DNA of 64,000 bases from a plasmid, in NCBI RefSeq assembly GCF_058153355.1, contig NZ_JBLWLY010000002.1. The stretch is one strand, 5' to 3'. Positions 15,001 to 18,000 of the stretch are shown piece after piece. The stretch's first letter is position 1. Each line of letters begins with the position of its first letter. The position numbers are program-made.

Positions 15001-18000
15001 CGGGGATATCATCGGCATGGACTTTACCGGGCATCAGCACATACTGGCGCAGGATGTCATACAGCGGTTCCAGCAGTTCAGCAACAGCACCTGTCCAGCG
15101 CCCCAGTGTGGCACGGCTCAGCTCCACGCCCTGACGACGGTATATTTCTGACTGGCGGTATAACGGCAGATGGTCTGCATATTTTCCAGCGACAACATGG
15201 GCCAGAAGCCCCGCTCCGGCATAACTGCGTGCAATGGGTTTTGAAGGCACCGGAGCCTGCACGATATGGTCGCACCGGCAACAGGCCAGTTTCGGACGTT
15301 GTGTTTCGATAACCTTAAAGGCGCTGCTGATAAGCTCCAGTTGCTCTGACACATCACATCCCAGAGAACTGAGTTCGCCACCACAGGCCGGGCAGCATTC
15401 CTCTTCCGGACGGATGACCCGGGTTTCACGGGGAAGTGAGGCAGGTAACGGTTTACGGGCTGAAGACTGGCGCAGGGGAGATGGCAGTACCGGGTCATAT
15501 TGCTCACCCAGCGTTTCCGCCATTTCTTCCTGAAGAGCGCTGATTCGCTCCTGTGCTTCCTGTATCTGCCGTTCGGTTTTTGCACGAAGTTTTTCTGAGC
15601 TTTTACCGAACTGCATGCGCTGCAGTTTTGCAACCAGCGCCTTCAGCCGGTTGATTTCGGAAGCATAAGCCGCCACCCGCTGTGAGAGCAGGCGGTTGTA
15701 TTTCGCCATCTGGCGGATGGTGTCCTGTTGCGTCTGCAACAGTGCCCGCAGGCGGGCATTCTCATGAGCAAGTGAGGTGTCCATATCCTCACTTTACAAC
15801 GGGTTATATGCGGATGCCAGCGCGTTCCGTTCGTTTCGGGTGTTTCCAGTCGATGCCCTCAAGAAGCATGGATAACTGGGCCGGAGTAAGGTGCACCTTG
15901 CCGTCACGGGTGACCGGCCAGACGAAGCGGCCCCGCTCCAGGCGTCTGGTGAAGAGGCACAGTCCGTCACTGTCAGCCCACAACACTTTTATCTGGTCAC
16001 CCCGGCGTCCGCGGAAGATGAACAGATGCCCGGAGAACGGGTCATCCTTCAGGACGTTCTGAACTTTTGAGGCCAGGCCGTTAAAGCCATTTCGCATATC
16101 GGTGATACCTGCAACCAGCCAGATACGCGAACCTGCAGGGAAAGATATCATCAGTGGCTACTCCCTTTTATTTCGCGGATAAGTATCTGTAATAACGCCA
16201 GCGTCAGTTTACCTTTAAGCCTGAGAGTTCCGGCCGGCAGAACCAGCTCACAGCACAGACTGTCGGACGGTGTATTTATCTGCTCTGGTTCCTGTGCCGG
16301 AGCCGGGATTTTATTATCCGGCTCCGGCGTTAACGTCACGGGAAGCAGTGCAGGCATATTTTTTCCGGAAGGCAGCAGGCCACCTTTCCGGTATTGATAG
16401 CGCCAGTTGAAGAGCAGGTTATCGTTGATTCCGTTTTCACGGGCGATCTGCGCCACACAGGCTCCGGGCTGCAGTGACTGCTCCACTAAGGCGATTTTAA
16501 ATTCATAAGGAAAATTAGGCCGCCGGGGACGTTTTTTTACCACCGGGAGTTTGGGCATAACGGTGCTTTCAGTAAGTACGACAGGTACTGTGGAGGCCCT
16601 TCCGTAAAGAAGGGCATCAAGTTCCTGCTCCGACATACCTGCGGGCAGAGGCCATGAAAGGCCAGCGTTGCGGAAGCGCACGAACATACCACAGACAGTT
16701 GATTTTGGTACGCCCAGGCGACGTCCGGCCACAACCCGTGGTAAATGTTCTTCGAAATGAAGGCGTAAAGCTTCAGTGATCCAGGATCTGGGGCGCAGTT
16801 CAAAAATGATGGACATTATTTTTGTGGAACCGGAGGTAACAGACCAGACGGTTTAAATGAGCCGGTTACACTTCTGTTGTATCCAGATACGCTAATCGGG
16901 CTGCTCAACTTGGCATAAAGCAATGACCCTTACCTACAGTATGGGATGATACAAAACTAAAACATGCGTTCCTTCAGACTCAGGTTAAGATGAAGAAACA
17001 TTCACTCCTGACTGGGCTACGGAACACCGGGAACTGCGTAATAAATGCGTGACGCTGCAGCTACTTTGGGAAGAATACTGTGAGCGTGATCCAGACGGTT
17101 TTTACAGCTATAACCATTACTGCCGGATGTACCGCGAATGGCACAAAACCACTTCACCATCAATGCGTCAGGTACATAAAGCTGGCGGAAAACTTTTCAT
17201 TGATTACTGTGGACCTACCGTTGACATTACCGCCCCTGATACCAGAGAAATAAGAACCGCTCAGATCATCGTATCATCGTAGCTGTTCTCGGGGGGATCT
17301 AGTTACACATGGGCAGAGGCCACTTGGTCTCAGCAGCTTGAAGACTGGGTGATGAGTCACATTCGCGGATTCCAGTGGTTGGGTGGCGTTCCTGAACTTG
17401 TTGTTCCGGGCCATCTGAGAAGCGCCACACCGAGTAGGCAGCCTGACGGCTGCGGCTTGTCATGGCCTGTGATTACCGTTATAAAAACAGACAATATCAT
17501 TGTCTTTCAGGCGGTTATATGGCCCGTTCAGCTAAACCACGCAAACGAAAACCTGCACCTCAAAGAAGCAAACTCCTCCGCTATGTCGTGAAACTTCACG
17601 AAGATGATTTTTTTGACGAAGAAGAAGCTGAGGTTCTGCGCTTTGATAATTTTGACGATGCCGTTGAGTGTTGCGCAGACCTGAATATTCCGTTCTTTGT
17701 GGATGCCGGAAACAAAAAACTGGTCTTCTGGTTTGTACGTGTTGATGACGAAGGGTATCCGGAAATTGCCCGCTGCACGGAGCGGGAATTTGCGACAATT
17801 CCTGCCGGTATCAGCGCCGACGGCATGTATTGCCCTGAATGCGGTACGGTTCACTGGCCGGATGGCGTTATTCCGCCTTTCTGATGCTTCCCCGTTTTGC
17901 CGATATTTTTCAGCAGGGAAACCGATGGCTTAACTGGCTGGAGAAGCAGCCGGTGCAGATGAGCCGCCTGGAACATTATGCCGGTCAGGATGAAATTGGC

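Follow-up and report, generated by a model that had tools for sequence, protein, structure and literature searches.

A 121-codon plasmid ORF is very probably orf121 of a defective IS91-like element

Within a 64,000-nucleotide stretch of plasmid DNA (contig NZ_JBLWLY010000002.1 of RefSeq assembly GCF_058153355.1; "the window" throughout), an ORF of 121 codons lies among insertion sequence (IS) debris. It is very probably orf121, the upstream accessory gene of IS91, in an IS91-like copy (17431-18549) on a Shigella or enteroinvasive Escherichia coli (EIEC) invasion plasmid. IS91 is a rolling-circle IS with an HUH "Y2" transposase. In the window copy the transposase gene, tnpA, is destroyed, and orf121, its promoter and both element ends are intact; the ORF is best annotated as IS91 orf121 in a defective IS91-like element, and not as the orphan nucleic-acid-binding gene envisaged in a preliminary description made from the sequence. 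orf121 is itself already known and functionally characterized: its definition dates from the sequencing of IS91 (Mendiola et al., 1992, as cited in PMC13181058), and the gene has been studied in detail by Fauconnier et al. (Commun Biol 2026, PMC13181058).

Identification of orf121

The features on which the identification depends are the following, numbered by position in the window:

17431-18549, + strand: IS91-like element, internally deleted, 1119 bp, delimited by blastn and MAFFT comparison with the intact copies in NZ_AP028095 (L002) and NZ_CP041414 (L003)
17431-17453, + strand: terIS end, CGAG (17431-17434) and then the hairpin GCAGCC-TGAC-GGCTGC (17438-17453)
17457-17485, + strand: orf121 promoter (Porf121), with candidate -35 TTGTCA (17457-17462), 17-nt spacer and -10 TATAAA (17480-17485)
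17489-17505, + strand: leader palindrome AGACAAT-ATC-ATTGTCT, 7 bp and perfect, after the -10 box of orf121 and before its Shine-Dalgarno sequence
17509-17514, + strand: Shine-Dalgarno-like AGGCGG preceding orf121
17519-17884, + strand: orf121, ATG at 17519 to TGA at 17882-17884, 121 amino acids, frame intact
17882-17886, + strand: TGATG overlap, in which the orf121 stop shares one base with the tnpA start
17884-18361, + strand: tnpA pseudogene, by tblastn and MAFFT against the 395-residue TnpA of L002
18470-18553, + strand: oriIS end and adjoining target, with GAAC (18550-18553) following the last base of the element at 18549

The extent of the ORF is as first described, from ATG to TGA on the + strand, and MYCPECGTVHWPDGVIPPF is the C-terminal part of its product. 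A mechanical ORF list places the start further upstream, at ATG 17462 (140 amino acids); since that codon falls within the -35 region of Porf121, and every homologue begins M-A-R-S, the start at 17519 given in the preliminary description is correct. The basic N-terminus, acidic stretch and CPECG reported there are likewise all present. Its picture of an isolated ORF, not placed in a known family and stranded between IS remnants, has to be given up: the ORF is the first gene within an IS91 remnant, 88 bp from the left end, and its product is 88-93% identical to 121-residue proteins encoded directly 5' of IS91-family transposases.

At the DNA level orf121 matches 1458 plasmid records, for the most part from IncF-type plasmids of E. 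coli and Shigella. The matching 366-bp ORF of L002 and L003 lies directly 5' of a gene for a 395-residue "IS91 family transposase," a protein in which Pfam recognizes the Zn_Tnp_IS91 and Y2_Tnp domains. A word-indexed search of 5.8 billion proteins yielded 233 clusters, including the 88-93% identical proteins (matched over 100% of their length) and relatives named "IS91, orf2" by their sources; the length of 121 residues is conserved in many clusters, and the window protein is identical to one encoded by the S. sonnei invasion plasmid (pINV). A homologue of 64% identity is present in three copies in a single genome (L007-L009), each with a TGATG overlap to an IS91-family tnpA, and the most remote, P0182 (28% identity, 115 amino acids), lies within L004, an 1815-bp contig consisting of one complete IS91-like element. 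The tnpA partner is intact in L002, L003, L004 and L007-L009. Wherever context can be judged, namely in the window, in L001-L004 and L007-L009 and in the copies on S. sonnei pINV (for L005 and L006 the sequence is too short), the homologue is inside an IS91-type element and beside tnpA or its remains.

The ORF is read as orf121 of IS91, and not as an orphan, because it is the first gene of an aligned element, runs into tnpA through TGATG, has 121-residue relatives at 88-93% identity and shares a cluster list with proteins labeled "IS91, orf2," with which it is collinear. The published landmarks of canonical Orf121 are present residue for residue: 121 amino acids, V49, L55, V61, L68, V75, C105-X2-C108, a -10 TATAAA, the TGATG overlap, the place 5' of tnpA, and terIS and oriIS ends.

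The reading of the preliminary description, a separate plasmid gene that encodes a nucleic-acid-binding zinc-ribbon protein and has nothing to do with the IS debris around it, is very unlikely. The basic tail and CPxCG are indeed conserved across the family, and zinc ribbons are matched weakly and without significance (zf-ChsH2, E = 0.019; bL32 and TFIIB, E = 0.6-1), but Orf121 has only one CxxC, and its homologues reside in IS91-type elements wherever context can be judged. The family is also very narrow, since an exhaustive profile search of 1.84 billion representatives gave 77 matches at E <= 1e-3, nearly all of them incomplete or frameshifted members of this same enterobacterial family. 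Among PHROGs, only an unnamed family of 121 positions, phrog_25574 (E = 1e-80), was matched, and it carries no functional label. The exhaustive search also brought up RanBP2-type zinc-finger repeat proteins, P0178 among them and probably P0123; P0178 was rejected as a motif-level match to YCPxCG only.

That the ORF is spurious, or an IS transposase fragment translated out of frame (the objection which the preliminary description had raised against itself), has a practically negligible probability. IS fragments and overlapping mechanical ORFs do crowd the region, but tblastn of the 395-residue TnpA misses 17519-17881 and finds TnpA-like segments only downstream, at 17884-18358. Nor does the conserved length fit a chance frame, or the ratio of non-synonymous to synonymous substitution rates (dN/dS): this is 0.06-0.08 at a dS of ~0.4 (Nei-Gojobori, against E. 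coli plasmid copies ~9-10% divergent in DNA), and on the window branch, polarized with L007 as outgroup, there are 12 synonymous vs. 2 non-synonymous changes. In PMC13181058, His-tagged Orf121 was examined by immunoblotting and by mass spectrometry. orf121 is a genuine gene under purifying selection, beyond a chance ORF.

Several points weigh against equating this copy with canonical IS91 and its product with a working Orf121. The window copy is only 90-91% identical to the common E. coli plasmid type in its 5' part and 82-84% in its 3' part, probably below the isoform filter of PMC13181058 (at least 95% nucleotide identity to reference X17114 over the whole IS), as judged from those E. coli plasmid copies; because of this the element is best called IS91-like. 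The protein diverges by 7-8% from the common E. coli plasmid type, and has private changes at the nearly invariant positions 20 (P20L) and 101 (G101D). It also has a proline, Pro95, within a predicted helix; the same base change gives CTGCCG (17802-17807, orf121 codons 94-96) as the -35 of the internal tnpA promoter (PtnpA), one base off the published TTGCCG. Given P20L, G101D and Pro95, the activity of this allele may be impaired. Finally, the metal binding and partner proposed below are inferred for a protein with no significant sequence or fold relative.

Ends and control signals

By alignment to L002 and L003, the element starts at CGAGTAGGCAGCC (17431) and ends at CCTATCGAT (18549); the intact copy in L002 is 1828 bp long, vs. 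1119 bp here. The CGAG of the left end is the complement of the published 5'-CTCG cleavage tetranucleotide, and the terIS sequence is common to L002, L003 and L004, the last of which begins exactly at CGAG. Folded as bottom-strand single-stranded DNA (ssDNA), the terIS hairpin has z = -2.6; the oriIS end folds no better than shuffled sequence. The GAAC at the right end reads 5'-GTTC on the other strand, in keeping with the IS91 preference for 5'-GTTC/CTTG targets beside oriIS, with a palindrome at terIS (PMC13181058). orf121 therefore lies within an element bounded by terIS (CTCG plus subterminal palindrome) and by oriIS next to a GTTC-type target.

In IS91, the terIS region holds Porf121, the main promoter for both orf121 and tnpA, with 62.8-fold the strength of PtnpA; mutation of the Porf121 -10 TATAAA causes an 18-fold loss of activity (PMC13181058). 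The window has this same -10 hexamer; the -35 was assigned here by sequence reading, none being given in the paper. A strict consensus promoter scan did not recover Porf121, because its rule requires a final T at -10, which TATAAA lacks. The leader palindrome (17489-17505), which L002, L003 and L004 carry unchanged in their IS91 copies, could be an operator or an mRNA hairpin.

Further downstream, the TGATG overlap is predicted from published IS91 to be a site of translational coupling: orf121 and tnpA are translationally coupled there, and the overlap raises tnpA expression. A 121-residue Orf121 is kept in 108 of 134 IS91 isoforms, with the one-base overlap in 80.6% (Fauconnier et al., PMC13181058).

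The tnpA remnant

After TGATG, MLPRFADIFQQGNRWLNWLEKQP corresponds to TnpA residues 1-23 and is identical to the TnpA of L002. Three lesions follow. A 705-bp in-frame deletion at a short microhomology (junction ~17938-17953) removes TnpA residues ~24-257, and with them HPHIH (residue 157) and the whole of Zn_Tnp_IS91; a 5-bp deletion (~18111/18112) falls at the tyrosines of the RYYGF motif (residue 312); and there is an in-frame stop at 18227. With no transposase in cis, Orf121, if made from Porf121, would act only in trans on other IS91 copies, and the 1119-bp element would be movable only with TnpA supplied in trans.

Copies on the S. sonnei invasion plasmid

The whole S. sonnei invasion plasmid NZ_CP019696 was rebuilt and its IS91 copies were mapped. 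At the locus of the window's own copy (42,671-43,711 of NZ_CP019696.1; L010), an IS66 end has taken away the leftmost 190 bp of the element, that is, terIS, the promoter and codons 1-34; because of this loss in S. sonnei, the window can be said to preserve an older state of the locus. The deleted element, with the same three lesions, is also present at 147,743-148,863 (L013), 99.5% identical over 1121 bp without gaps; its flanks differ from those in the window on both sides, and GGAC stands beside its right end. The same deleted element thus occupies two sites of S. sonnei pINV that differ in their flanks, which shows that it transposed at least once after tnpA was lost. The TnpA for that move was presumably supplied in trans, which would match the experimental behavior of a terIS::orf121-cmR mini-IS, mobilized in trans by TnpA (PMC13181058).

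Two copies with an intact 395-codon tnpA are present on the same plasmid, at 59,822-61,654 and 78,744-81,838 (L011). orf121 is broken in both, in one by a frameshift near codons 31-35 and in the other by an IS600 insertion at codon 58, so the only intact orf121 of NZ_CP019696.1 sits in a tnpA-dead copy.

What is the status of the window copy? One possibility, to which a substantial though minority likelihood is given, is that of a silent relic: the gene would be orf121 by descent, and inert here, its frame intact only because the copy is young, and the gene either unexpressed or inactivated by private substitutions. The three disabling lesions in the tnpA of the same element favor this, as do two substitutions at positions that hardly vary among relatives, P20L and G101D, and Pro95 within a predicted helix. 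The pINV copies are 99.2-99.7% identical to each other, too recent a divergence for selection or decay to have become visible, and the S. sonnei copy at the same locus has lost its first 34 codons and promoter with no evident consequence. Set against a relic are the intact -10 box, Shine-Dalgarno-like sequence, start codon and entire frame, the excess of synonymous changes on the window lineage (12 vs. 2), and the activity of Orf121 in trans in published data (PMC13181058).

A different possibility, rather improbable, is that the 1119-bp element is a natural "regulator-only" IS91 derivative, having kept both ends, the promoter and the inhibitor gene and lost the transposase. Internally deleted KP P-elements act as repressors. 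By analogy with these, the element might persist in invasion plasmids and damp IS91 in trans; just as well, it might parasitize the autonomous IS91 copies.

The identification of the ORF as orf121 adds little beyond PMC13181058; mildly new are the evidence for movement of the candidate regulator-only derivative and the pattern of reciprocal decay. IS91 and ISCR elements mobilize virulence and resistance genes by one-ended transposition, and as side points for work on them there are the movement of an orf121-only element lacking tnpA, the reciprocal decay of orf121 and tnpA on one plasmid, and a very narrow family with one allele that looks swapped.

NZ_CP019696.1 also encodes two other IS91-family transposases (L010), of 402 amino acids (11,550-13,011) and 399 amino acids (18,415-19,812), which are 34% identical to IS91 TnpA. 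The small ORFs upstream of them (90 and 62 amino acids, respectively) have no similarity to Orf121.

The Orf121 protein and its possible mode of action

Early insertion mutants suggested that orf121 had little effect on transposition (PMC13181058). In the native arrangement, Orf121 lowers transposition by 20.7-fold to 8045-fold, and when supplied in trans from an independent promoter, by 8.6-fold; it decreases tnpA transcript and TnpA protein levels, and reduces insertion of the bottom-strand ssDNA circle. One-ended transposition is cut 1.5- to 2.9-fold by Orf121, with cleavage always at 5'-CTCG: more accurate termination at terIS leads to fewer one-ended events that take adjacent DNA. The candidate partners proposed by the authors are TnpA, the IS ends or tnpA mRNA, and C105-X2-C108 and leucine-zipper-like spacings are pointed out in the protein (all PMC13181058).

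The profile and structure searches recommended in the preliminary description gave no significant relative of Orf121; they point to a narrow family, and leave its zinc-ribbon label unsupported. Pfam and NCBIfam have no family for the protein, with only DAAF9_N and zf-ChsH2 appearing below threshold; a profile search of the Protein Data Bank (PDB) gave nothing below E = 0.5, the bL32 and TFIIB zinc ribbons being marginal at E = 0.6-1; and a fold search with the AlphaFold model found no significant structural neighbor. The cysteines are C51, C52, C86, C105 and C108, with H112 invariant among relatives. The "CxxC...CPECG" first reported is a single motif, the sole CxxC being CPEC itself (C105, C108), and as the other conserved cysteines are C51/C52 and C86, a two-knuckle, four-cysteine zinc ribbon is absent from the sequence. 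Zinc ribbons and ZnF-UBP domains do share with Orf121 a CPxCG knuckle followed, in the model, by a beta-hairpin, and the marginal bL32 and TFIIB profile matches go in the same direction; lacking the second CxxC knuckle, Orf121 differs from them, and the likeness is a lead only.

AlphaFold2 was run twice, with 19 sequences (pLDDT 66) and with 26 sequences including P0182 (pLDDT 72.9, pTM 0.57; 67-73 across five models), giving the same secondary structure. A low-confidence basic tail (residues 1-20) and a low-confidence acidic loop accompany a core in the order beta-beta-alpha-beta-beta-beta-alpha, then a short hairpin bearing CPEC; C51/C52 are in a predicted helix and C86 is at a strand end. 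From the model, we infer a disordered Lys/Arg-rich tail (1-20), an acidic segment (~28-38) and a small alpha/beta core (~39-112).

Even the remote P0182 keeps M1, S4, F42, F45, A48, C52, I57, G64, N65, W71, V73, F91, P106, C108, G109 and H112, together with the MARSxKPRKxK tail. The element that encodes it (L004, 1-1815; Logan SRR24138183 contig 142) is ~80-100% identical per 60-nt window to the IS91 of L002 over the first ~120 nt and tnpA, and ~65% toward the 3' end; over the part coding for Orf121 identity is only ~43%, with the basic N-terminal motif and CPxCGTxH retained. The divergent orf121 of L004 looks like a swapped module, and hints that the orf121 module is exchangeable.

The conserved C52, C86, C105, C108 and H112 probably hold a metal, in which case Orf121 might be a small metal-binding adaptor with a basic tail, acting on the complex of TnpA and terIS; nucleic-acid binding, as first suggested from its composition, is a possibility. 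Its action would most likely be stoichiometric, on the TnpA-end complex, via TnpA and/or the DNA of the terIS hairpin. Relaxases of the HUH type have accessory proteins (for example the ribbon-helix-helix proteins TraY, TrwA and NikA), small basic partners for accurate cutting next to a hairpin. By analogy, Orf121, which improves terIS cleavage (PMC13181058), may be compared with these. Acting as proposed, it would resemble the accessory factor of an HUH relaxase.

IS1 InsA and IS3-family OrfA have helix-turn-helix domains and are linked to their transposases by frameshifting. The comparison of Orf121 with them is made in PMC13181058: all of them are small proteins whose genes precede a transposase gene and are coupled to it, and all lower transposition; InsA and OrfA bind the terminal inverted repeats of DDE-type ISs. 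Orf121 differs from both in having no detectable similarity to them, and in serving an HUH rolling-circle transposase with two non-equivalent ends.

Surroundings of the element

The window is ~99% identical to Shigella invasion plasmids. Fragments of an IS21-family element adjoin the IS91-like copy on both sides:

16990-17430, + strand: left flank, IS21-family istA-like pseudogene fragment, identified by eye, interrupted by an in-frame stop (17280-17282) and truncated where IS91 begins
18554-18712, + strand: right flank, C-terminal fragment of istB (IS21 family, last ~50 codons; Pfam IstB_IS21, E = 7.8e-15, profile positions 182-219 of 238)

Residues encoded by 17049-17279 have no Pfam match, and the istA-like label comes from sequence reading only. 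By a rough estimate, the IS21-like element lacks ~900 bp between the two fragments, which suggests a deletion associated with the IS91 insertion. Just upstream is an IS66-family element (14345-16816, - strand) with three ORFs of 221, 115 and 479 amino acids, the 115-residue product being annotated as IS66 TnpB in matching records.

Downstream, a 239-codon ORF (20823-21542, + strand) corresponds to the gene for which matching pINV records give the product as a type III effector phosphothreonine lyase, presumably OspF. Between the IS debris and this putative ospF is an ORF of 192 codons (19211-19789, + strand) with no Pfam match, at the same place as the hypothetical protein WP_000868562.1 in S. 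sonnei pINV. In the matching pINV records the phosphothreonine lyase gene is followed by an effector gene of the ShET2/EspL2 family, and this succession of effectors places the window on a Shigella/EIEC invasion plasmid.

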